Positions 6,561 to 32,000 are shown, counted from the first letter of the stretch. The stretch: DNA of 32,000 nt from Moraxella nasovis (GCF_022701215.1 NZ_CP089976.1:630001-662000), one strand, 5' to 3'. Translations and numbers: made by a program. Notes: generated by a model not told the origin, from the letters alone.

Positions 6561-8042
6561 ATGACACAATTTCATCAATTATCCGTCCATGAATTGGCAC
6601 AAGGCTTGACCAATAAAGACTTTTCAAGCGTGGAGCTGACAGAATATTTCATCAATCGCATTGGCAAATACGATGACACAATCAACAGCTTTATCACCCA
6701 TGATTTTGATCATGCCCTAAAAAATGCCCAAACAGCGGACCAATTGCGTACCAAAGGCGACACACGCCCCCTGCTTGGCGTGCCGATGGCTCATAAAGAC
6801 AACCTATGCACCAAAGGCGTACTGACTACGGCAGGCTCCAAGATTTTATATAACTTCGTCTCGCCTTATGACGCAACCGTGGTTGAGAATATCGCCAAGG
6901 CAGGATTTATCAACCTAGGCAAGCTCAACATGGACGAGTTTGCCATGGGGTCGGATAACGAATCTTCATACTTTGGGGCAGTGCATAATCCTTGGGATAC
7001 CGCCCGTGTACCTGGGGGGTCATCTGGGGGGTCGGCAGCTGCGGTAGCAAGTGGCTTTACCCCTGTCGCCACAGGCTCAGACACAGGTGGCTCTATCCGT
7101 CAGCCAGCAAGTTTTTGTGGCGTAACTGGCATCAAGCCCACCTATGGGCGTGTGTCTCGCTATGGCATGATTGCCTATGCGTCAAGCCTAGACCAAGCAG
7201 GCACCTTTGGCAAATCTGCCCTTGATTGTGCGTATCTGTTAAACCCCATGCAAGGACACGATGTCAAGGACGCAACATCTATCAACCGCCCCAATGATGA
7301 CTATGTGGCGGACATTTTGGCGGTTAAGACAGACGATAAGCCCTTAGCAGGCAAAAAAATCGGTGTTGCCAAAGCCTATTTTGGTCAAGGCTTGGACAGC
7401 GATGTTGAAAAATCAATCCGCACCGCCTTGGCTACCTATGAAGAGCTGGGGGCGACGATTGTGGAAGTGGACATCACCGACCCTGCAATCACTTTGGCGA
7501 CTTATTATCTGCTTGCCCCCGCCGAAGCCAGCTCCAATTTGTCTCGCTATGATGGCGTGCGTTTTGGCTATCGCTGTGAAGACCCCAAAGATTTGATGGA
7601 TTTGTACACACGCAGTCGCTCAGAAGGTTTTGGGGCGGAAGTGCAACGCCGTATCATCATGGGGACATACGCCCTATCGGCAGGCTATTTTGATGCCTAC
7701 TATACCAAAGCCCAAAAGGTTCGCCGTATCATCATGGAAGATTTCAAAAAAGCCTTTGAAACCTGCGATATCATCGCAAGCCCCACCGCACCGACAACCG
7801 CCTACAAATTGGGCGAATCGCTTGACCCTGCCACCATTTATCTTGGCGATGTCTATACCATTGGCGTAAATTTGGCAGGACTGCCTGCACTCTCCCACCC
7901 AGTCGGACAAGCAAACGGCTTGCCTGTGGGCTTACAGCTGATTGGCAAGCATTGGGCAGAAAGCGAGCTTTTAAAGACAGCTCATATTTATCAGGCGAAT
8001 ACTGATTTTCATGAGCAACTGCCTAAGTTTGCCAACACTTAA
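6561..8042 (+). CDS. gatA: Asp-tRNA(Asn)/Glu-tRNA(Gln) amidotransferase subunit A
   Basis: Amidase signature [12 protein letters not shown]...[12 protein letters not shown]. The sequence is collinear with Pseudomonas GatA from [16 protein letters not shown] onward. An alternative start lies at 6546. Confidence 0.97.
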
Positions 8043-8055
8043 TTTTAAGGAAAAC

Positions 8056-8568
8056 ATGATGGACATCATCATCAAACGCACAGAACAAAAGTACAGCGAT
8101 GGCGTACAAGCACTTTATCTTAGCCCAAGTGTATATAGCCAAACCCTACATCTACCCAGTCAATCGGCGGATAATTGGAAAAAGTGGCTTGGCAATATCC
8201 CTGACCATGTGCATTCTTTTGTGGCGGTATGTGATGATGGTGTCAACCAAAAGGTGGTTGGCAATGTTGCCTTAAAACTTGAAACAGCTGAACGCAGACG
8301 ACATATTGGCAGTTTTGTGATTGCGGTACACGATGAGCATCAAGGTCAAGGCATCGGCAAAAAACTACTAAATACCATCATTGATTTGGCGGATAATTGG
8401 CTTAATTTAACTCGCCTAGAACTCACCGTTTATACCGATAACGAAAAAGCCATTCAGCTGTATCAAAAATTTGGCTTTGACATTGAAGGCGAGCATAGGC
8501 AGTTTGCATTTAGACACGGCAAGTTCGTCAATGCCTATACGATGGCAAGAATTAAGAGCGAAAGCTAA
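8056..8568 (+). CDS. GNAT family N-acetyltransferase (YhhY-like)
   Basis: Acetyl-CoA motif QGQGIGKKLL. The C-terminal half, NWLNLTRLELTVYTDNEKAIQLYQKFGFDIEGEHRQFAFRHGKFVNAYTMARI, closely resembles E. coli YhhY as I recall it. An AAGGA Shine-Dalgarno sequence sits 13 nt after the gatA stop. The track start at 8011 lies inside gatA and is unlikely. Confidence 0.85.
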   Translation: MMDIIIKRTEQKYSDGVQALYLSPSVYSQTLHLPSQSADNWKKWLGNIPDHVHSFVAVCDDGVNQKVVGNVALKLETAERRRHIGSFVIAVHDEHQGQGIGKKLLNTIIDLADNWLNLTRLELTVYTDNEKAIQLYQKFGFDIEGEHRQFAFRHGKFVNAYTMARIKSES

Positions 8569-8577
8569 GGAGTTGGT

Positions 8578-8844
8578 ATGCAAACTGTTACTTTGCAATT
8601 TGATGATGTCTATTATCAAGAATTGGTTAGTCAAGTGGGCGAAGACAATTTATCAGACTTTTTTAAAACAGTATCCGAACCCTATTTATGGCTTCACAAA
8701 AAAAGTCATGAGCCATCAGATGATGAATTAAGCCCAATGCACCGAAAAATCTTAGATGAACGCTTGGCAAGTTACCAATCTGATGGCAATAAAGGCAAGC
8801 CCTATCAATCGGTTTTGGCTGATATTCGCAAAACACTTGGTTAA
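8578..8844 (+). CDS. Putative type II antitoxin (addiction-module component, PF09720/TIGR02574-like)
   Basis: The C-terminal LSPMHRKILDERLASYQSDGNKGKPYQSVLADIRKTL fits the LS..K.LD.RLA.Y......P...V...IR pattern of that family. It lies immediately upstream of a ParE-like ORF. A GGAG Shine-Dalgarno sequence sits 9 nt after the GNAT stop. Confidence 0.7.
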   Translation: MQTVTLQFDDVYYQELVSQVGEDNLSDFFKTVSEPYLWLHKKSHEPSDDELSPMHRKILDERLASYQSDGNKGKPYQSVLADIRKTLG

Positions 8845-8848
8845 CTGT

Positions 8849-9154
8849 ATGGCTTTTAATATTTTAATTCGCAGTGAAGCACAAAATGATATTGCACAAA
8901 TTGCCCATTGGTACAAAAGCCAAGCGAACAATCTGGACAAACGTTTTTTGACTGCTCTTGAACACACCTTGGAAAAATTAAGCTATATGGCAGACAGCCA
9001 TGCAATTATTTATCAAAATACTCGCAAAATTTTATTGCATAAATTCCCCTATGCAGTACATTATCAGATTGATGGTTTTGATGTGATTGTTTTTGCAGTA
9101 TTACACGGTAGCCAAAATCCCATCAATTGGCAAATTAGGGCGGACAATGTTTAA
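8849..9154 (+). CDS. RelE/ParE family toxin
   Basis: 101 aa starting MAFNILIRSEAQNDIAQIAHWY and ending ...FPYAVHYQIDGFDVIVFAVLHGSQNP, the typical ParE layout. The start is 4 nt after the antitoxin stop. The track ORF 8756..9154 starts too early, because it overlaps the antitoxin. Confidence 0.8.
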   Translation: MAFNILIRSEAQNDIAQIAHWYKSQANNLDKRFLTALEHTLEKLSYMADSHAIIYQNTRKILLHKFPYAVHYQIDGFDVIVFAVLHGSQNPINWQIRADNV

Positions 9155-9275
9155 CCTTTATTAAGGCACATTAAACTTTCTAACACTTTTTTATAAAATA
9201 CAAGTTATAAAATGCAAGCGTTCAACATACCCTAATTATTCACAAACTAGTTTATTGTTTAAAAGAGAAAACAAC

Positions 9276-10754
9276 ATGACCATCTCCAATTCACCCAACC
9301 TACTCATTGACGGCTATGAAGTGATTATCGGCATTGAAATCCATTGCCAGTTAAACACGGACAGCAAAATATTCTCAAACGCTCCCACCACCTTTGGGCA
9401 AGCACCGAACACGGCAGCCACGATTGTGGATTTGGGTTTTCCTGGGGCATTGCCTGTCTTGAACGAAGGCGTGATTGAGCGTGCCTTAAAATTTGGCTTA
9501 GGAGTCAATGCCAAACTTGGCACCTATAACACCTTTGACCGCAAAAACTACTTTTATCCTGACCTACCCAAAGGCTACCAAATCACCCAAATGGCAAACC
9601 CTATTGTCGGCAAAGGCTACATTGACGTGCTCGTCAATGCAGGGCAAAAAGACGAATACACCAAGCGTATCGGCATCACACGGGCTCACCTAGAAGAAGA
9701 TGCAGGAAAATCAGTGCATGATGCTGTACCACAGATGACAGGCGTGGACTTAAACCGTGCTGGCACACCCTTGATTGAGATTGTCTCTGAACCTGATATG
9801 CGTTCGGTGGGTGAAGCTGTGGCTTATGTCAAGACCATTCATGAGCTGGTTACTTGGCTTGGCATCTCAGACGCTGTCATGGCAGAAGGCTCGTTTCGTG
9901 CCGACATCAACGTCTCAGTGCATAAGCCAAACACCCCCTTTGGCACACGCTGTGAGCTAAAAAACCTAAATTCATTTCGCTTTATTGAACGTGCCATCAA
10001 ATCAGAAGTGGAGCGACAAATCGATCTGATTGAAGACGGTGGAACAGTCGTGCAAGCCACTCGCCTATACGACCCTGAGCAAGATGAAACCCGTGCCATG
10101 CGTACCAAAGAAGAAGCCAACGACTACCGCTATTTTCCAGACCCCGACCTATTGCCTGTCGTGATTTCTGATGAAACGCTCGCCAAAGTGCGTGCCGATA
10201 TGCCAGAGCTACCTAGTCATCGTAAAGAGCGATTTGTGAATGAATTTGGCTTGACTGCTTATGACGCACTCGTGCTAAACGGTAGCCGTGAATTGTCGGA
10301 TTATTTTTTGCAAGTAGTTGATATTATTGGAAAAAACTACGCCAAGATTGGGGCAAACTGGGTCATGGGCGAGCTGTCTGGGGCATTAAATAAAAATGAA
10401 CTGACAATTGCAAACTCCCCCATCTCCGCCGAACGCTTGGCAGGGCTTATCATGCGTATCAATGACAACACCATCAGCGGTAAAATCGCCAAAGAAGTGT
10501 TTAGTTTTATGTGGGAGACTGACAAAACCGCCGATGAAATCATCAATGAAAAAGGACTAAAACAAGAAACCGACACAGGGGCGATTACCGCCATCATCAG
10601 CGAAGTCTTGGCGAATAATCAAGCGATGGTGGACGAGTACAAATCTGGCAAAGAAAAAGCCTTTAATGGGCTGGTTGGGCAAGTCATGAAAGCAAGTCGT
10701 GGCAAAGCAAACCCAGCTCAGGTCAATCAGTTGTTAAAAGAGATGATTGGGTGA
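9276..10754 (+). CDS. gatB: Asp-tRNA(Asn)/Glu-tRNA(Gln) amidotransferase subunit B
   Basis: [26 protein letters not shown], and the C-terminal GatB/YqeY tail ...[18 protein letters not shown] prefer the ATG at 9276 over the TTG at 9255. Confidence 0.97.
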
Positions 10755-10768
10755 ATTGGGTAAATGAT

Positions 10769-10796
10769 AAAGCCAAATCCAAATAGATTTGGCTTT
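10769..10796 (+). terminator. Hairpin after gatB (weak terminator)
   Basis: aaagccaaatc-caaata-gatttggcttt forms an 11-bp stem. The T-tract is poor (tatcat). Confidence 0.4.
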
Positions 10797-10833
10797 ATCA
10801 TAAAATATATTAACAAAAGGGAATAATATAATT

Positions 10834-12561
10834 ATGTCATTTCAAACACCAGTCACTATTGCGAATGCGATAAGTCAAATTGAAAATAGTAAATACTTAG
10901 TTCCAGCTATTCAAAGAGAATTTGTTTGGAAACACGATCGAATTGAGCAGCTTTTTGATTCACTTATGCAAGGCTACCCAATCAGCTCATTTTTATTTTG
11001 GGAGGTTCAAGAACAAAATGTCAATCAATTTAAATTTTATAAAATCATTAAAGATTTTCGTGAACGCTACAAAACCCACAATGAAGAATACAACACATCT
11101 GGATCCAATGGGTTTTACGCCATTTTAGACGGACAACAAAGATTAACATCATTATATATTGGCTTAAAGGGAAGTTTTGCCTATAAAACCCCTAGAAAAA
11201 AATGGGAAGATAATCAAAATTCATTACCTACTAGGGATTTGTATTTAAATATTACAAAGGAACTATCTGAACAAGAAAATGGAAGAAAATATCAGTTTCA
11301 ATTTTTAGATAGAAATTTAACCAACCAAAAAAATTTCTATGATAAAGATGAGCAAAAATGGTTCAGAGTATCACATATTTTAGACTATACTGATGATAAA
11401 AAATTAGGTGATATGATAAAGAATTTGGACAGCGAATTTGCTAGAAAATCTATCAGACAACTAAAAAGAGTTATTCATGAGAGACAAATTATAAATTTTT
11501 ATCTAGAAGAAGAACAAAATCTAGATAAAGCATTAAAAATATTTATAAGAATAAATAGTGGCGGAATAGCATTAAGTTTTTCGGATTTAATTATGTCTAT
11601 TGCTATTTCAAATTGGAAAACCAAAGACGCAAGAAGAGAAATATTAGGCTTGGTTGATGAGATAAAAAATAAAGATTTTCATATATCAAAAGATTTAATA
11701 TTAAAAACATTTTTATACCTATATAGTACAGATATTGGCTTTAAAGTAACAAATTTTTCATCGGAAAAAGCAAAAATATTTGAAGATAATTGGCTAAGTA
11801 TTAAGAATGCTATTTTATCTACCTTTGATTTGATTAAATCATTTGGTTTTGATGAATATAATTTAACATCAAAAAATTCCATCATTCCTATTATTTATTA
11901 CTTATATCATAGAAATATCTATAAAGACTTTACCCATAAAGTAGAATTTAAGAATGAAAGAAAAATCATAAAAGAATGGCTACATATTGTACTAATAAAC
12001 AGAGTTTTTGGCGGTACTTCTGATAGTACATTATCTCAAATCAGAAAAGTTTTTTCCAATGATGTGGTAAAAGAACCAATTAAATTAGACATTGATATAT
12101 TTCCTAAAATTCAAATGCTTGATAGTATTAGAAAAGACATGGTTATTGATTATGATAATATTTTAAATATACAATATGAAGATAAGTATGCCTTCTCTAT
12201 ATTGTCATTACTTTATCCCAATTTAGATTACAAAAACAACAATTTTCATAAAGACCATTTGCACCCAGAAACTAGCTACGAGCTATTAAGCGATGACTTA
12301 AAAGAAAAATATAGTCGTGAGGTTTATAATTCCATTATCAATTTACAAATGCTCGGTGCAAATGAAAATTCATCTAAACAAAACAAAGAATTAGCAGAAT
12401 GGGTTTCTCAAGAAACGCAAACCAAAAACAAAGAAGAATTTTTGGATAATCATTTAATTCCCGATATTGATTTGAGTTTAATGAATTTTGATGTATTTGT
12501 GGAAAAAAGAAAAGCGTTAATTATCAAAAAGTTAAAAGAATTAGTAGGCACTCTTGAATAA
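10834..12561 (+). CDS. DUF262 (ParB-like NTPase) / DUF1524 (His-Me finger nuclease) fusion protein, GmrSD-like putative type IV restriction/defense nuclease
   Basis: 575 aa. The N-terminus has VPAIQREFVWKHDRIEQLFDSLMQGYPISSFLFWEV and ILDGQQRLTSLYIG, the DUF262 hallmarks. The C-terminus has HKDHLHPE...NLQMLGANENSSKQNK, which is DUF1524/HNH-like. Codon usage is very A+T rich relative to its neighbours. Confidence 0.8.
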   Translation: MSFQTPVTIANAISQIENSKYLVPAIQREFVWKHDRIEQLFDSLMQGYPISSFLFWEVQEQNVNQFKFYKIIKDFRERYKTHNEEYNTSGSNGFYAILDGQQRLTSLYIGLKGSFAYKTPRKKWEDNQNSLPTRDLYLNITKELSEQENGRKYQFQFLDRNLTNQKNFYDKDEQKWFRVSHILDYTDDKKLGDMIKNLDSEFARKSIRQLKRVIHERQIINFYLEEEQNLDKALKIFIRINSGGIALSFSDLIMSIAISNWKTKDARREILGLVDEIKNKDFHISKDLILKTFLYLYSTDIGFKVTNFSSEKAKIFEDNWLSIKNAILSTFDLIKSFGFDEYNLTSKNSIIPIIYYLYHRNIYKDFTHKVEFKNERKIIKEWLHIVLINRVFGGTSDSTLSQIRKVFSNDVVKEPIKLDIDIFPKIQMLDSIRKDMVIDYDNILNIQYEDKYAFSILSLLYPNLDYKNNNFHKDHLHPETSYELLSDDLKEKYSREVYNSIINLQMLGANENSSKQNKELAEWVSQETQTKNKEEFLDNHLIPDIDLSLMNFDVFVEKRKALIIKKLKELVGTLE

Positions 12562-12692
12562 TGAAAAATGATAACACAAAACCAATCAAGCCCCTACTCC
12601 ACCGTGCCGACAGCCTACTCTTTGCCACAGGGGCAGACATTGTGGACAGCAGTCTGCCTGACCTGACTTTCGGAGCAATAGCGGTATATAGC

Positions 12693-12743
12693 AAGGCAAA
12701 CCCTGCACAGATCAATCAGCTGTTAAAGCAGATGCTTGGGTAA
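12693..12743 (+). pseudogene. Displaced remnant of the gatB 3' end (last 16 codons plus stop)
   Basis: It encodes KANPAQINQLLKQMLG*, compared with [16 protein letters not shown] for gatB. By my hand alignment, 42 of 51 nt are identical to 10704-10754. Confidence 0.75.
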
Positions 12744-12762
12744 AGCAAATAATTAAAAATTT

Positions 12763-12794
12763 AGTCAAATCCAACGTGGGTTTGGCTTTTTTTT
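12763..12794 (+). terminator. Intrinsic terminator following the gatB remnant
   Basis: agtcaaatcc-aacgt-gggtttggct forms 10 bp including two G:U pairs, followed by tttttttt. It is related in sequence to the hairpin at 10769-10796. Confidence 0.6.
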
Positions 12795-12876
12795 GGCGAT
12801 AAATTTTATCTTTATTTTTGCCTAACTTCCACTTTAAATTTTAAAAAAAATTAACAACAAAATCATTACTTTTTTA

Positions 12877-12905
12877 TTGCCATTTAAAATACTTTTTGTT
12901 ATATT
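12877..12905 (+). promoter_or_regulatory. Putative sigma70 promoter of the dioxygenase gene
   Basis: TTGCCA-17 nt-TATATT, about 35 nt upstream of the ATG at 12941. Confidence 0.4.
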
Positions 12906-12940
12906 AAGTATGCCTATTTTTTTCATAATAAGGATATCTT

Positions 12941-13576
12941 ATGGCTTCACTACTGCACACAGGAACCCTACCAACCGACATCATCGCTGCCTTAGAGGGT
13001 GATTTTGATGGACTAAAACCTAGCGTCTATAAAGATGGTAGCTATCGCCTGCGTCGTTATTCCAAAATCGTCTATAACAAAGACGACAAGCACATTGATT
13101 TACTGCGTGGCACAAACTTTTGCCAAAGCAGTGAATTTAATAAATTCCAAGGCGATGTGGTGCGTGAATATGACGACATCAGCGATGAACTCATTGCCAG
13201 CGAAGGTTTTTTACGCATTGTTGATACCTTTGCTAACGAAGGCGGTTTACCAAAAGACGCAACTATTGATGTACATCAAATTCGTGTGGTCGCCAAAGAC
13301 CCAGCCAAACCTACCGTAACCACCCCAGAAGGCATTCATCAAGACGGCTACAACCGCATTGGTATGTTCACCGTCAGCTTCAAAAATGCCGAAGGAGCAG
13401 AGCTTCGTATCTATAGCGATAACGACCCTGACACCGTCCTAGAAAAAATCCCCAGCAAAACAGGCGGATACTGCGTGGTAGATGATAGCGATTTATGGCA
13501 TTATGCTACCGAGATTAGCAGTGATGACGGCAATGGTTATTGGGATTTGTTTGTTTTGACTGCCAATATGAACTGA
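12941..13576 (+). CDS. 2OG-Fe dioxygenase family protein (PF10014-like)
   Basis: 211 aa with an HxD motif in PEGIHQDG and a distal His in DLWHYATEI. The overall layout (YRLRRYS...; VHQIRV...) matches my recollection of the PF10014 family that includes L-isoleucine 4-hydroxylase. It is monocistronic, with its own promoter and terminator. Confidence 0.65.
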   Translation: MASLLHTGTLPTDIIAALEGDFDGLKPSVYKDGSYRLRRYSKIVYNKDDKHIDLLRGTNFCQSSEFNKFQGDVVREYDDISDELIASEGFLRIVDTFANEGGLPKDATIDVHQIRVVAKDPAKPTVTTPEGIHQDGYNRIGMFTVSFKNAEGAELRIYSDNDPDTVLEKIPSKTGGYCVVDDSDLWHYATEISSDDGNGYWDLFVLTANMN

Positions 13577-13610
13577 TTTATCTAAGAAACCATCACCATT
13601 TTGATGAATT

Positions 13611-13641
13611 AACGCCAATTTTATATTGGCGTTATTTTTTT
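13611..13641 (+). terminator. Intrinsic terminator of the dioxygenase gene
   Basis: aacgccaat-tttat-attggcgtt followed by atttttttt. Confidence 0.75.
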
Positions 13642-13771: not shown

Positions 13772-14257
13772 TTAGTGTTGATGACCGCCAGCACCATGTG
13801 CATGACCGTGTGCGATTTCATCAGCAGTCGCTGCACGCACCTCTACAATCTCCACATCAAAAGTTAAAGCCTGACCTGCCAATGGGTGGTTACCATCTAC
13901 AACCACTTCTTCATCAGTCACTTCTTTGACCGTAACCAGCATCACATGACCGTCATCGGTTTGTGATTGGAACTGCATACCTGCTTCAATGTTATCCACG
14001 CCTTGGAAATTGGCACGTGGCACAGATTGCACCGCTTCTGCGATATATTCGCCATACGCATCTTCTGGGGCGATGGTGGCAGTGAACTTATCGCCTGCTG
14101 ATTTACCTTCCATTTGGGCTTCTAAACCCGGAATGATATTGTGATGACCGTGTAGATATGCCAACGGCTCACCACGAGATTGATCTAATGTCTCGCCTTT
14201 ATCGTTCGTCAGTGTGTAGTTAAACTTAACAACGGTATCTTTTGCGATTGTAGTCAT
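13772..14257 (-). CDS. slyD: FKBP-type peptidyl-prolyl cis-trans isomerase SlyD
   Basis: 161 aa with VVKFNYTLTNDKGETLDQS...LAYLHGHHNIIPGLE and HPLAGQALTFDVEIVEVR, plus a His-rich tail HGHAHGAGGHQH. Confidence 0.9.
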   Translation of the reverse strand: MTTIAKDTVVKFNYTLTNDKGETLDQSRGEPLAYLHGHHNIIPGLEAQMEGKSAGDKFTATIAPEDAYGEYIAEAVQSVPRANFQGVDNIEAGMQFQSQTDDGHVMLVTVKEVTDEEVVVDGNHPLAGQALTFDVEIVEVRAATADEIAHGHAHGAGGHQH

Positions 14258-26623: not shown

Positions 26624-26824
26624 AAAAAGCAAGCCTTCTTTAAAATAAAATACACCATCAAAATAAAATACGCCATCAAACTCAAACAGTCAAATGAGTG
26701 CCTGCATGAATATAACATTTAGATAAAATGCTTGGCATTTTGCCTAATTTTCTCATCAAAGACAAGTCAAATCCCCACTTTTTATATAAAATCAGTTACA
26801 ATACGCATTTTTGACCATATTACT

Positions 26825-28225
26825 ATGCTCTTAGACATTAATCGCTATTCATTCGCCACTTATAAAAAAGAATTTATCGCCATCTTAACACTTGGGCTGC
26901 CCATGATGCTCTCACAAGTTGCCCAAGTTGGAACAGGCTTTATTGATACTGTCATGGCAGGTGGTGCAGGTAAAGAAGACTTGGCGGCTGTCGCCTTAGG
27001 TAATAGTTTTTTTATCACCATATACATCACCATGCTTGGCGTAATGACCGCCCTAAATCCGATGATTTCCCAAGCTCACGGTGCTGCCGTTAAAGGTGGT
27101 AACTCTCAAGCCATCGGTGAAATGGGGCGTCAAGGCATTTGGTTTGGTGCGTTAATGGGCTTAATAGGCATGCTACTCATGTGGCTTGCTGTTCGTCCAT
27201 TTCAGGCATTTTTTGATCTCACCGACTACACACAAACCGTCGGCTCAAACTACATTTGGTTTGCAAGTCTTGCCATGCCTGCTGCCATGATTCATCGCAG
27301 TCTTCATGCTTATGCTTCAAGCTTAAACCGCCCAAAAGCCATCATGTGGGTCAGCTGGCTTTGCTTTTTTCTAAACATTCCCCTAAACTGGATTTTTGTT
27401 TATGGTGAATTTGGCATGCCTAAGCTTGGTGGTGCTGGCTGTGGTCTGGCAACAGCGATTGTATTTTGGGTAAATGCCATCGTGCTTGGGCTATTCATCG
27501 CTAAAGATAAGTACTTTAAAGAGTTTGGTCTAACCGATAAATTTAGCTTGCCTGATCTTAAGCTATTTGGTGATATTGCACGACTTGGCATACCGATTGG
27601 CTTTTCGTTTTTCATTGAGATTAGCTTATTTACCTGCATTATGTTCTTAGTGGCAAAGCTTGATGGGCATACCGAAAATCTTGTCGCCGCCCAGCAGATT
27701 GTCATCAGCCTTATTAGCTTAATTTATATGATTCCGCAGAGTATCGGAACAGCAAGCACCGTCCGTATCGGCTATGCACTTGGTCAAAACAGACCCGCCC
27801 AAGCTCGCTATATCAGCGGTGTATCGGTGTCTAGTGCGATTGTTGCTGCCATGATAACAGCTATCTTCTTGGTAGTCGCTCGCTATCCACTGGCTAAAAT
27901 GTACACTGACGATTTAGCGGTCATCGGTATCGCCACAAACATCATGCTGTTTGCTGCAGCATTTCAGATGTTTGATGCAACCCAGACAGTGGCAAGCTAT
28001 GCCTTACGTGGCTATAAAGTCACTAAAATCCCCATGATTATTCATGCTACTGCCTTTTGGGGCTGCGGTCTGATACCCGGCTTTATCTTAGCATTTTTTA
28101 TGGGTATGGGAATCTATGGATTTTGGACAGCACTTGTTGTGTCGCTTTGTGTCGGCGCAGGGTTTTTAATGTGGTATCTAGAAAAATACAGCAAAGCCTA
28201 TAAAATCCCTTCGCATACCGCCTAA
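26825..28225 (+). CDS. norM: MATE family multidrug efflux transporter (NorM-like)
   Basis: 12-TM protein collinear with E. coli NorM/YdhE (GFIDTVMAGG...; FGMPKLGGAGCGLATA; VRIGYALGQ). I prefer the start at MLLDINRY (26825), because the track ORF begins at a non-ATG codon 93 nt upstream. Confidence 0.9.
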   Translation: MLLDINRYSFATYKKEFIAILTLGLPMMLSQVAQVGTGFIDTVMAGGAGKEDLAAVALGNSFFITIYITMLGVMTALNPMISQAHGAAVKGGNSQAIGEMGRQGIWFGALMGLIGMLLMWLAVRPFQAFFDLTDYTQTVGSNYIWFASLAMPAAMIHRSLHAYASSLNRPKAIMWVSWLCFFLNIPLNWIFVYGEFGMPKLGGAGCGLATAIVFWVNAIVLGLFIAKDKYFKEFGLTDKFSLPDLKLFGDIARLGIPIGFSFFIEISLFTCIMFLVAKLDGHTENLVAAQQIVISLISLIYMIPQSIGTASTVRIGYALGQNRPAQARYISGVSVSSAIVAAMITAIFLVVARYPLAKMYTDDLAVIGIATNIMLFAAAFQMFDATQTVASYALRGYKVTKIPMIIHATAFWGCGLIPGFILAFFMGMGIYGFWTALVVSLCVGAGFLMWYLEKYSKAYKIPSHTA

Positions 28226-28372
28226 ACACTTACCAATTCACACACCAAACTATGCTTATGAGCAAGTTTGGTGATAACGCTTTAATATTGATTAACCAAT
28301 AAAAACACCCCAAGCGGTTACAGCTTTTGTTATAATTAGACACTCATCACACTTGCGATTTTACAGATTATC

Positions 28373-29689
28373 ATGAAAAAATACACCCCGCTTATCGCCA
28401 TACTGACACTTAGCACGCCTGCAATCGCAGATGATTTGCCAAGCTTATCAAGCAGTCAATTTCATCAATGCCTTGATGGACTAAAATATACAGCAGCTTT
28501 TCGTGACGTATCTGGCGATACATTTGAACGTTATCGCCCAAGCGAGCCTGATCCTACGGTCATTCGCTCTTTAAACTATCAGCCAGAATTTAAAAAGGAT
28601 GTCTGGGATTACCACGCTTCTTTGGTGGATAGTGAGCGTGTGGCAGACGGTCTAAATGCCAAGCGTGAGATGGCTGATACACTGCGTCGTATTGAGGCAC
28701 GTTATGGCGTTAAAGCAGAGCATGTGCTTGGCGTATGGGGCGTGGAATCTAACTTTGGTCAGACGCTGGGTAAAAAAGACCTGTTCACAAGCCTAGCGAC
28801 GCTGTCTTGCTTTGATCGTCGCCAAAGCTACTTTCGCAGCGAATATGCCAACGCCTTAAAAATCGTCCAAAACGGAGACATTTCCCCTGCTGACATGACA
28901 GGCTCATGGGCGGGTGCCTTTGGTCAGACACAGTTTATGCCAAGCACCTTTTTAGAGCTTGCAGTGGATTTTGATGGTGATGGTCGTAAAGACTTGGTAA
29001 ACTCTAAAGCCGACGCCTTGGCAAGCACTGCCAACTTTTTGTCAAAACGTGGCTATCGCACAGGTGAGCCTTGGGGTTATGAAGTTGTGCTTAATGGCTA
29101 TGATGGCACAAGCGGACGCCGAAATAAAAAACCCATCAGCTATTGGCAAAGCATGGGGATTACGCTACCTGACGGCAGACCACTACCATATAATATGACA
29201 TCGGCAGGACTGCTACTTCCTGCTGGTAAAAATGGGCCTGCCTTCCTAGTGGGGAAAAACTTTGACACGTTTTATAGCTATAACGCCTCTGAAAGCTACG
29301 CTCTTGCCATCGCCCATTTAGCTACTTTACTTGAATATGAAAGCACCAATACCAACTTTGCCACGCCTTGGCCAACAGATGATGCAGGTATTGGTCGCCG
29401 TGAAGCCAAAGAAATTCAGCAAGCCTTGCTCAATGCAGGCTATGACATTGGTAATGTTGATGGCATTATTGGGGATAATACACGTCGTGCGATTATGGAT
29501 TATCAGCGTAAAATGGGTGTGAGTGTAGATGGACGAGCAGGTCAAAAATTCCATAGACTGATTACATCTCAGATCAGTACACAACAAGCTTATCCATACA
29601 GCAGCAGTACGCCAACACAGCCTAAGGCGATAACATATCGCAAGGTGCTAAATGCAGATGGCACAGTTTCGCTCATTCCCATGCCTTAG
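28373..29689 (+). CDS. Lytic murein transglycosylase (MltB/Slt35-like) with C-terminal peptidoglycan-binding domain
   Basis: Signal peptide MKKYTPLIAILTLSTPAIA. Catalytic region GVWGVESNFG and GAFGQTQFMPSTF. C-terminal PG_binding_1-like LLNAGYDIGNVDGIIGDNTRRAIMDYQRKMG. Confidence 0.88.
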   Translation: MKKYTPLIAILTLSTPAIADDLPSLSSSQFHQCLDGLKYTAAFRDVSGDTFERYRPSEPDPTVIRSLNYQPEFKKDVWDYHASLVDSERVADGLNAKREMADTLRRIEARYGVKAEHVLGVWGVESNFGQTLGKKDLFTSLATLSCFDRRQSYFRSEYANALKIVQNGDISPADMTGSWAGAFGQTQFMPSTFLELAVDFDGDGRKDLVNSKADALASTANFLSKRGYRTGEPWGYEVVLNGYDGTSGRRNKKPISYWQSMGITLPDGRPLPYNMTSAGLLLPAGKNGPAFLVGKNFDTFYSYNASESYALAIAHLATLLEYESTNTNFATPWPTDDAGIGRREAKEIQQALLNAGYDIGNVDGIIGDNTRRAIMDYQRKMGVSVDGRAGQKFHRLITSQISTQQAYPYSSSTPTQPKAITYRKVLNADGTVSLIPMP

Positions 29690-29704
29690 TGTTTTTTGGT
29701 CAAT

Positions 29705-29733
29705 AAAAACGGCTACTTAGTGTAGCCGTTTTT
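29705..29733. terminator. Bidirectional intrinsic terminator
   Basis: aaaaacggctac-ttagt-gtagccgttttt lies between the convergent transglycosylase gene and the small ORF. Confidence 0.85.
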
Positions 29734-29738
29734 ATGAT

Positions 29739-29906
29739 TTAGGATTCTTCTTCGTCATCATCCCACTTGGCATAACTTTTGGCAGGGTCAATGCCTTGGG
29801 ACTTAAGATAAGCAACTTGCTCTTCTAGCGTACGTGTTTTTTCTGCGTCGTGCATCGCATCTTCTAGTTTGTCCAGCTGATTAATCAGCTCTTTATGATC
29901 GGTCAT
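29739..29906 (-). CDS. Small acidic hypothetical protein (55 aa), not in the supplied ORF track
   Basis: The ATG at 29906 is preceded by AGGAG at a spacing of 6-7 nt. Hand translation gives MTDHKELINQLDKLEDAMHDAEKTRTLEEQVAYLKSQGIDPAKSYAKWDDDEEES*. It ends just before the bidirectional terminator. Confidence 0.55.
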   Translation of the reverse strand: MTDHKELINQLDKLEDAMHDAEKTRTLEEQVAYLKSQGIDPAKSYAKWDDDEEES

Positions 29907-29972
29907 GATTTTCTCCTAAATTAGATATATCTCCATTAAACCAAATTTATCCAAAAAAAGCAAATCTACCCT

Positions 29973-30797
29973 CTAATTCTCAAAAAATCCATCGCCCACA
30001 AAAACAACCCCATCGCCCACCAGCCCCCGAACAGTTGTCTGAATTTTATCATCTAAATGGCTAGCATAAAAAATCAAATCGCTCATCTGCTGTGTTTGAT
30101 GGTCAAGTGATAATTCCACCAATAAATCACAAACTCGATTTGCCACCGCCTCCCCAGAATCCACAAGCTCCATCTGTAAACGACGTGCAGCGATTTCTTC
30201 TGCTAAAAAAGCCTTAAAAAACGGATAATGCGTACAGCCAAGCACAATGGTGTCCACGCCATCATCCGCCCATGCTTTGACTTGCTTAACCAAAAGCTTT
30301 GCCACAGGGCTATCAATCGGCTTACCTGCCTCCACCCACGGCACAAGGCTTGGCTCAAAATGCTTATGAACAGTGATGTTGCTTGGCATGGCGACATCAC
30401 AGATGACCTGTTGTAGCAGTTTACCATCAAGCGTGGCTCTCGTAGCAAGCACAGCCACTTGCTTGGTTTTGGTCAAAAAACAAGCAGGCTTTAGTGCAGG
30501 AACAAGCCCCACGATTGGGATTAAAAACTGCTGCCTTAATACTTCAAGTGCGTGAGCAGAAGCACTATTACAGGCGATGACAATAAGCTTACAGCCTGCT
30601 TGGCATAATTTTTCCACCGCTTGGCAGGTTAGCCTTAAAATCTGCTCTGCAGATTTATCGCCATAAGGTATGTTTTTAGTGTCAGCATAATAGATAAATT
30701 GCTCATTTGGCAAAGTTCGTCTTAAATGCAAGAACACCGACAGACCGCCTACTCCGCTATCAAACACCCCGATTGGTGCATTATTCATCGCATTCAC
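29973..30797 (-). CDS. murI: Glutamate racemase
   Basis: IGVFDSGVGGLSV, IACNSASA and LGCTHYPF motifs. The track start is the GTG at 30797, and an ATG alternative lies at 30788. Confidence 0.93.
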   Translation of the reverse strand: MNAMNNAPIGVFDSGVGGLSVFLHLRRTLPNEQFIYYADTKNIPYGDKSAEQILRLTCQAVEKLCQAGCKLIVIACNSASAHALEVLRQQFLIPIVGLVPALKPACFLTKTKQVAVLATRATLDGKLLQQVICDVAMPSNITVHKHFEPSLVPWVEAGKPIDSPVAKLLVKQVKAWADDGVDTIVLGCTHYPFFKAFLAEEIAARRLQMELVDSGEAVANRVCDLLVELSLDHQTQQMSDLIFYASHLDDKIQTTVRGLVGDGVVFVGDGFFEN

Positions 30798-31399
30798 CGC
30801 TTATCTTGCTTAATCTCAAACGTCTGATTGCCACTTGTTAGGCTTAGCACCGTGCCTGTCCCCTTATCTGTCAGCTGACCCATCTCCACCAAGTGATACA
30901 GCACATTGCGATTCACACGTGCTGTAAGATTAAAGCGAGTATCAATATGCAGGCGCTCATCAAGCACGCCATCATTCATCACCGTCTTAAAATAAGGTAT
31001 ATGCTGTTCATCTAAGAAAATTTCATCGCCATGTGTTGTTGTAAATTTAATCAATGTCATGCCATCTATCGCCACCTCTTCCACTTGATTGATAAACAAT
31101 GGCACATCCGCCACACAGATTTCGTATTGATGGCTTGGTGTTTTTAAAAAATGGCGTTTTTTATCGCCTTCAATCTGTGCCCACAGCACGCTGGCAAATA
31201 AATCCACCAATGATTGGCGGGTTATTTTCACCCCTTCGTGATACCAGTCGCCATTATCGGCAATCCTAATATCAAACGGTGTGATAATCTTAGGCGACCA
31301 CAGCTCAAGCGGTGGTATAGGGCGCTCACTGGGTATCGCTTGAATCAGATGGTCAAGTGCGTTTTGTTGCGTTGGGTGTTTATGGTGATTGGCATTCAT
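30794..31399 (-). CDS. DUF1285 domain-containing protein
   Basis: FDIRIADNGDWYHEGVKITRQSLVDLFASVLW matches the DUF1285 core as I remember it. I prefer the ATG at 31399, which has an AAGGA Shine-Dalgarno sequence, over the upstream track start at 31435. Confidence 0.75.
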   Translation of the reverse strand: MNANHHKHPTQQNALDHLIQAIPSERPIPPLELWSPKIITPFDIRIADNGDWYHEGVKITRQSLVDLFASVLWAQIEGDKKRHFLKTPSHQYEICVADVPLFINQVEEVAIDGMTLIKFTTTHGDEIFLDEQHIPYFKTVMNDGVLDERLHIDTRFNLTARVNRNVLYHLVEMGQLTDKGTGTVLSLTSGNQTFEIKQDKR

Positions 31400-31559
31400 G
31401 GTTATCCTTAAATTATGGCGTGCCGAACACACCATCGCAAACAGCGTTATTATTAAATTTAGACACTCATTGTGCCTAAAAACACCTAAAAAAGCAAATA
31501 GATTGCACCAAAATCCCCAAAAGACGTCCTGTTAAATCTGTTATACACGCATTCGCTAA

Positions 31560-31588
31560 TTGTCAATCTGCCCAATGCTTGGTAAAAT
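31560..31588 (+). promoter_or_regulatory. Putative sigma70 promoter of the ETF-QO gene
   Basis: TTGTCA-17 nt-TAAAAT, about 50 nt upstream of the ATG at 31639. Confidence 0.4.
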
Positions 31589-31638
31589 GACTATCTCACC
31601 CACTAAAAGGCATTAGATAAATAGCCAAAGGAAACCCA

Positions 31639-32000
31639 ATGCAAGAACCAATTCAAAGAGAATCCATGGAATTTGATGTCGTCATCGTAGGCGGCGGCGT
31701 TGCAGGATTGTCCACCGCCATTCGTCTAAAACAGCTTGCCAATGACGCAGGCATGGATGAATTTATGGTGTGTGTTTTGGAAAAAGGATCAGAATTTGGA
31801 GCACACACGTTAAGTGGAGCGGTCATCGAGCCACGTGCATTAAGCGAACTTTTCCCAAACTGGCAAGAGATGGGAGCACCATTAAATGTAAGCGTCAAAG
31901 AAGATCGTGTGTATACGCTAAGCAGTGCCACAAAATCTGTCAAGCTACCAAGCTCAGTTGTGCCTATGAGTATGCATAACGAAGGCAATTACATCGTCTC
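31639..32000 (+). CDS. Electron transfer flavoprotein-ubiquinone oxidoreductase, N-terminal part (runs off the window end)
   Basis: Hand translation gives MQEPIQRESMEFDVVIVGGGVAGLSTAIRLKQLA...VCVLEKGSEFGAHTLSGAVIEPRALSELFPNW, the FAD-binding N-terminus typical of ETF-QO. An AAGGAA Shine-Dalgarno sequence lies upstream. It is absent from the ORF track because the ORF is open-ended. Confidence 0.88.
   Translation, partial: MQEPIQRESMEFDVVIVGGGVAGLSTAIRLKQLANDAGMDEFMVCVLEKGSEFGAHTLSGAVIEPRALSELFPNWQEMGAPLNVSVKEDRVYTLSSATKSVKLPSSVVPMSMHNEGNYIV

Follow-up and report, generated by a model that had tools for sequence, protein, structure and literature searches.

The stretch of DNA analysed here (the window) comprises 32,000 nucleotides (nt) of the Moraxella nasovis genome (GCF_022701215.1, NZ_CP089976.1:630001-662000, one strand). 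In this window the core gene gatB is followed by an A+T-rich gene for a BrxU-type restriction enzyme, the broken 5' end of a Sir2 gene and a second, diverged copy of the end of gatB. It is likely, with a probability of about 0.7 for the general scheme, that this arrangement is the scar of an imprecise recombination between lineages, in a defence slot flanked by core genes. The event would have merged two lineages' versions of the locus, one with the order gatB-BrxU-Sir2-slyD and the other with the order gatB-terminator-dioxygenase-slyD. The features that carry this reading are as follows.

9276-10754, plus strand: gatB, encoding subunit B of the Asp/Glu-tRNA amidotransferase (Pfam GatB_N and GatB_Yqey)
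10702-10755, plus strand: gatB-tail copy 1, with which the functional gatB ends (D1, a 54-nt direct repeat, 83% identity)
10764-10801, plus strand: hairpin 1, a perfect 16-bp stem with a 6-nt loop and without a T-run (inverted repeat I8, 100% complementary)
10834-12561, plus strand: BrxU or HEC-05-type type IV restriction enzyme of the GmrSD family, 575 amino acids (aa) (Pfam, PADLOC and 7P9K matches)
12562-12690, plus strand: 5' remnant of a Sir2-family deacylase gene, ∼40 codons with indels (blastn and protein match to locus L093)
12683-12695, no strand assigned: candidate illegitimate junction between Sir2 stump and gatB tail (junction line-up)
12691-12744, plus strand: gatB-tail copy 2, encoding KANPAQINQLLKQMLG and a stop codon, with no gatB body attached
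12763-12797, plus strand: hairpin 2 with T-run, a canonical intrinsic terminator (stem 12763-12787, then TTTTTTTT, T8)
12886-13640, plus strand: 2OG-Fe dioxygenase module (gene 12941-13576, PF10014, E 9e-41) with its own 55-nt upstream region and terminator
13772-14257, minus strand: slyD-type FKBP gene (Pfam FKBP_C), where synteny with relatives carrying BrxU and Sir2 picks up

The two gatB tails lie in the same orientation, 1989 nt apart. Read in register, 10704-10754 and 12693-12743 are identical at 42 of 51 nt, exactly as stated in an initial annotation of this DNA, which took the second tail for a diverged duplicate of the first. A gapped alignment reaches through both hairpins (∼10702-10797 against 12691-12790) and has a local score of 45, compared with 10.5 ± 1.3 (maximum 16) for shuffled sequences, so that the duplicate is borne out. 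Copy 2 also aligns by blastn to the gatB 3' ends of loci L081, L082, L090 and L093 from relatives, at 76-84% identity. Hairpin 1 (fold −22.1 kcal/mol, z −6.2) is a homologue of the M. caviae gatB terminator, with which it aligns in L082. Hairpin 2 (fold −14.2 kcal/mol) is homologous to both, the blastn match to L082 running to 12792. It is the single match in a terminator-pattern scan of 10600-13000, in agreement with the related second hairpin and T-tract that had been described.

Base composition sets the gene between the tails apart. The GC content of gatB is 47.3%, with 50% at third codon positions (GC3), and that of the whole window is 42.2%, whereas the gene at 10834-12561 has a GC of 27.1% and a GC3 of 21%. 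The A+T-rich shift described in the initial annotation is confirmed by computation, and the cargo is foreign in composition. The A+T-rich part was said to end near 12585, and this position holds; left unexplained was its cause, a Sir2 stump of normal composition (12562-12690, GC 49.6%). Positions 12582-12703 match 7926-8045 of L093, the start of a Sir2 gene, at 72% nt identity (blastn). At the protein level the stump reads PIKPLLHRADSLLFATGA against PIKTLLQSADSLLITAGA in the L093 Sir2, with indels, and the L093 gene matches PF02146. Most of Sir2 is replaced in the window by gatB tail 2, the terminator, a spacer and the 2OG-Fe dioxygenase gene. The BrxU homologue is the only long open reading frame (ORF) between the repeats, but the earlier claim of exactly one gene between the copies fails on the Sir2 remnant. 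Nor do the repeats bound a single-gene cassette, because the 5' stump of a Sir2 gene of native composition is also enclosed, and relatives are without the second tail. Sir2 was also considered as part of a defence system. This was rejected: there is no PADLOC match, Sir2 has a GC of 51.5% where BrxU has 28%, and its score is under the CobB equivalog cut-offs. Sir2 is taken as a resident gene and not as cargo.

The switch from Sir2 to gatB can be placed closely. The blastn alignments to Sir2 and to gatB overlap at 12691-12703. At the junction, the relatives' Sir2 (..ATGTGGCAAGCC..) and gatB (..CCGTGGCAAGGC..) have the 8-nt string GTGGCAAG in common, present in Sir2 of L093 and L111 and in gatB of L081 and L093, precisely where the window passes from one gene to the other.

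An unbroken version of the locus is found in relatives. Five loci, which belong to two related lineages (L093; L111-L114), have the order gatC-gatA-(GNAT or bro)-gatB-BrxU-Sir2-slyD(minus strand)-M61-rluA(minus strand), the last being a pseudouridine synthase gene. The window is syntenic with these gatB-BrxU-Sir2-slyD-M61 relatives on both sides: 9259-12548 is colinear with 4440-7733 of L093, and the slyD gene has 85% nt identity to 8861-9346 of L093. None of the BrxU-carrying relatives (L093, L111-L114 and L083) has a second gatB tail, with best scores of ≤16 against 45 for the window as control. A GatB scan of genome contigs gave, among the matches listed, relatives at ≤63% identity.

The differences between the two tails suggest where they arose. 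Over the 16 codons that they share there are five synonymous and three conservative replacement differences, and the stop codon is kept. Under neutral drift of copy 2, the expected synonymous share is ∼19% (P=0.009). Moraxella GatB C-termini are variable, and the variant residues of the tails are of kinds found in natural Moraxella GatB ends. The mostly synonymous differences argue that each tail served a functional gatB while the two were diverging, in separate lineages, and the earlier view that the copies come from different lineages and not from a target-site duplication stands. As a separate observation, gatB itself is a mosaic between lineages: the identity of L093 and L081 is 91-97% over the first 400 nt but 81-89% beyond, that of L093 and L111 varies between 87% and 100% with position in the gene, and the L093 tail (VNELLKKLIG) is of a type found in more distant lineages.

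In the proposed scheme, tail 2 would be the left end of a block of ∼1 kb comprising the final 53 nt of gatB with its terminator, the spacer and the dioxygenase gene, and this block would have been joined to the Sir2 5' stump at GTGGCAAG. The DNA would have been taken up by natural transformation, which is probably the route of exchange between lineages, and then recombined, homology providing the anchor at one end and the microhomology the joint at the other. Such homology-facilitated illegitimate recombination, with 3-10 bp of microhomology, has been documented in Acinetobacter baylyi, a member of the Moraxellaceae, in Streptococcus pneumoniae and in Pseudomonas stutzeri (PMC6382021). The window resembles these cases in its 8-nt junction microhomology, in the adjoining sequence homologous between lineages and in belonging to a family with naturally competent members; it differs in that the event is deduced from one genome. 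Both flanks of the window are homologous to relatives.

Several observations weigh against the scheme: (i) the window junction itself reads ATAGCAAG, and the 8-nt microhomology is reconstructed from relatives, (ii) the right-hand junction is not visible, a search for a Sir2 3' remnant between 13577 and slyD giving background scores, (iii) sliding identity gives no clear mosaic breakpoint inside the window gatB, (iv) comparison within M. nasovis covers one genome, with no empty or alternative site from the species, (v) no genome was found with the order gatB-terminator-dioxygenase-slyD, the closest dioxygenase orthologues (67-68%) being located elsewhere, and (vi) a metagenome scan for the dioxygenase gave solely marine relatives, at ≤41% identity.

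The dioxygenase gene is out of its usual place. In M. ovis and other Moraxella, its orthologues are flanked by ETF-QO and an aminotransferase gene and not by gatB. The MatE-SLT-racemase-DUF1285-ETF-QO neighbourhood is present at 26732-32000, running off the window end, and the dioxygenase gene by gatB is ∼20 kb from this usual place. The blastn match to M. ovis (L104) covers 12886-13567 and 13609-13638. The spacer at 12791-12940 gave background scores against the gatB flanks of relatives. Database entries for M. nasovis are 100% identical to the window's GatB (P0001), cargo protein and dioxygenase. A separate look-up by exact sequence gave no record for the dioxygenase or for the BrxU homologue.

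Whether the BrxU side or the dioxygenase side was imported has odds that are roughly even, with a weak lean to the dioxygenase side because the outcome would be the standard product of replacement with deletion. With an imported dioxygenase block, both flanks would simply be ancestral. The opposite polarity, which follows the initial annotation, is a tentative sub-case of the same scheme and somewhat doubtful. The recipient would have had gatB (with tail 2)-terminator-dioxygenase-slyD. A gatB 3' part with tail 1, followed by BrxU and the 5' end of Sir2, would have come in, with its anchor in gatB and its illegitimate joint at the tail that the recipient already had. The identities of BrxU and GatB are incongruent in a way that suits this polarity: the window BrxU is nearer to that of L083 (75%) than to that of L093 (63%), whereas in GatB L093 is the closer relative (91%, against 85% for L083). 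The dioxygenase could also be native, as its 67% aa identity to M. ovis falls among the 54-78% of other M. nasovis orthologues from its usual neighbourhood, and a single cluster of the M. nasovis dioxygenase exists. However, the illegitimate joint would have to fall within the region homologous to the anchor, which is possible and yields a net duplication, whereas replacement with deletion is the usual product. The window also matches the L093-type locus on both sides, down to the GNAT gene between gatA and gatB, which is simplest if this type of locus is the ancestral one here, and gatB contains no visible breakpoint.

It is unlikely that the gatB end is a dedicated exchange point, at which defence cassettes carrying their own last gatB codons and terminator are swapped without a recombinase, the tail of this essential gene being exchanged together with the cargo on every occasion. 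The M. nasovis duplicate would then be a trapped intermediate. The variable GatB C-termini and a hint that the L093 tail groups apart from its gene body are compatible, weakly, with such exchange.

Very improbable is a decayed or trans-mobilised integrative island at the gatB 3' end, which would have brought a replacement gene end, with the tails as attL and attR. This was among the origins first put forward for the locus, and a direct repeat of a gene end with A+T-rich cargo in between does resemble the islands that integrate into tRNA, tmRNA or protein genes at their 3' ends, where a duplicated, slightly different gene end flanks foreign DNA. Unlike these islands, the locus has no recombinase. 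The absence of integrase, transposase and terminal inverted repeats, already noted in the initial annotation, holds across the 32 kb. None of the 29 window ORFs of ≥120 aa is an integrase or transposase: 27 were assigned by Pfam scan to housekeeping, toxin-antitoxin or defence functions, and the other two are homologous to the M. ovis racemase and DUF1285 genes. The identical runs between the tail copies are no longer than 8-9 nt, the interval holds a broken gene, native in composition, of which relatives have an intact version, and those relatives that share the gatB-BrxU arrangement lack the repeat. Searches for a close copy of the cassette found none in plasmids (one distant match in Kurthia), phages (relatives at ≤40% aa identity) or viral contigs (one partial 48% match). 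A reading of the hairpins as integron attC sites was rejected by inspection, since they are short perfect stems without GTTRRRY cores and are homologues of gatB terminators.

It is likewise very improbable that the gatB end was duplicated long ago in this genome (in tandem or as a target-site duplication) and that the copies then diverged in place. This would account for two direct copies 1989 nt apart, but hardly for the mostly synonymous differences with frame and stop kept where a detached copy should drift neutrally, the intact terminator of copy 2, its natural variant residues or its position beside a Sir2 stump.

Recombination between lineages, the preferred origin of the second tail, is set in a region that differs widely among relatives. 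Among the loci compared, the DNA after gatB is a variable slot in Moraxella, occupied mostly by type IV (modification-dependent) restriction genes. Three lineages have BrxU after gatB, namely that of the window, that of L093/L111 (63% identical to the window in aa sequence) and that of L083, whose allele (75% identical to that of the window) is followed by PPK2. McrB and McrC (Pfam AAA_5 and McrBC) occupy the site in L090, L091, L095 and L096. In the M. catarrhalis-type locus L081, tRNA-Pro and unrelated genes come after gatB. In M. caviae (L082), gatB and its terminator are followed by a LysR-family gene, with no cargo gene. The last 26 nt of gatB are shared by L110 (1542-1635) and L083 (from position 1), which split at the stop codon, L110 continuing like a McrBC-type flank. 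A site without cargo and other cargo were thus found where the initial annotation had looked to relatives for them, and these alternative contents fit its suggestion that a cassette was exchanged at a fixed hotspot through transformation and recombination.

The slot has the features of a core-gene-flanked defence hotspot, namely varied or no cargo and A+T-rich defence genes, with a cargo GC of 27-33% in every lineage against 47-48% for gatB. Core-gene-flanked defence hotspots have been described for Escherichia coli and Pseudomonas aeruginosa. The Moraxella slot is similar to these in having one core-gene junction, varied and A+T-rich defence cargo and no mobility genes; it differs in its anchor, the gatB stop codon and terminator, and in the readable junction left by turnover in one genome. 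No earlier report of this gatB-end defence slot was found in a literature search.

Three side observations concern the same site. Seven metagenome contigs with the L083 allele (L083-L089, from different runs) begin in the last 26-30 nt of gatB, as expected of an assembly branch point, which suggests that strains with different cargo co-occur in the samples. In L081, a tRNA-Pro(GGG) lies at 7688-7764, ∼215 nt past gatB, and synteny with other lineages stops there. In L090, a 2OG-FeII_Oxy_3 protein follows McrBC (11233-12036; PADLOC '2OG, CAS-associated', E 2e-20), and its family is distinct from that of the PF10014 dioxygenase of the window.

The cargo of the window is a full-length, apparently intact BrxU homologue. 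Its N-terminal DUF262/GmrSD_N domain exceeds the gathering score of PF03235 (E 2.2e-33) and contains ILDGQQRLTSL, which aligns with LDGQQR of BrxU. The PADLOC HEC-05 model matches residues 2-571 (E 8e-209), and all three BrxU alleles found after gatB match this model. Compared with the structure of BrxU (7P9K), cargo residues 3-567 align to residues 2-574 of the chain (E 1.2e-110). At the C-terminus, FHKDHLHPE and NLQMLGANEN align with FHVDHIYPK and NLQLLEGTIN of BrxU, forming a His-Me/HNH nuclease motif, and QLFDS is in register with RLFDS. The assignment of this motif to the DUF1524 type rests on the BrxU alignment, the Pfam scan having given no DUF1524 match. Likeness to BrxU of the Escherichia fergusonii plasmid pEFER (PDB 7P9K/7P9M) thus extends from end to end and includes both the DUF262 and nuclease motifs. 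In contrast with BrxU relatives embedded in BREX, Hma or type I restriction-modification systems, the window gene stands alone after a housekeeping operon. HEC-05 has been equated with BrxU, a GmrSD-like type IV enzyme that targets modified phage DNA (bioRxiv 10.1101/2024.01.29.577857). The predicted target of the cargo enzyme is most likely phage DNA with modified cytosines.

The gatCAB operon of Moraxella thus has a previously unreported defence slot, in a genus that includes respiratory and ocular pathogens and in which the adjoining gatA-gatB gap is already known for the bro beta-lactamase. PMC4073114, which cites Bootsma et al. 2000, ascribes the entry of bro into this gap of M. catarrhalis and M. 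bovoculi to transfer by transformation, already the accepted route for bro there. The two insertions share the operon and the genus, and the acquisition of bro is likewise integrase-free and attributed to transformation; they differ in site, bro lying in the gatA-gatB gap rather than after gatB, and in cargo, which is resistance and not defence. The window offers a rare natural case of a cargo swap whose junction can still be read. It supports recombination of transformed DNA, and not mobile elements, as the mechanism by which defence genes turn over at such sites. It also gives reason for caution, as the presence of A+T-rich cargo between two copies of a gene end is insufficient to call an integrative island.

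One further feature spans the junction.

12561-12743, plus strand: chimeric 60-codon ORF, composed of the Sir2 N-terminus and the last 16 GatB codons (ORF list)

This ORF is probably a by-product; it had no match in a Pfam scan. The stop codon of BrxU overlaps its ATG (TAATG, 12559-12563), whereas BrxU and Sir2 are 177 nt apart in L093, and the overlap may be due to chance or may be a trace of former translational coupling of the two genes in this lineage. An Rfam scan of 10600-13000 gave no RNA gene, the tRNAs of the window being confined to 22.5-22.8 kb.

Contents also vary in the gap between gatA and gatB, which makes it a second slot of this kind (8011-9154 in the window). Here a GNAT acetyltransferase gene (8011-8568) is followed by a toxin-antitoxin pair of lower GC, consisting of a weak antitoxin-like ORF (8578-8844) and a ParE toxin (8756-9154). 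In relatives the gap contains GNAT alone (L093), the bro beta-lactamase gene (L081, L094-L102 and L111-L114) or a small ORF (L082 and L090).

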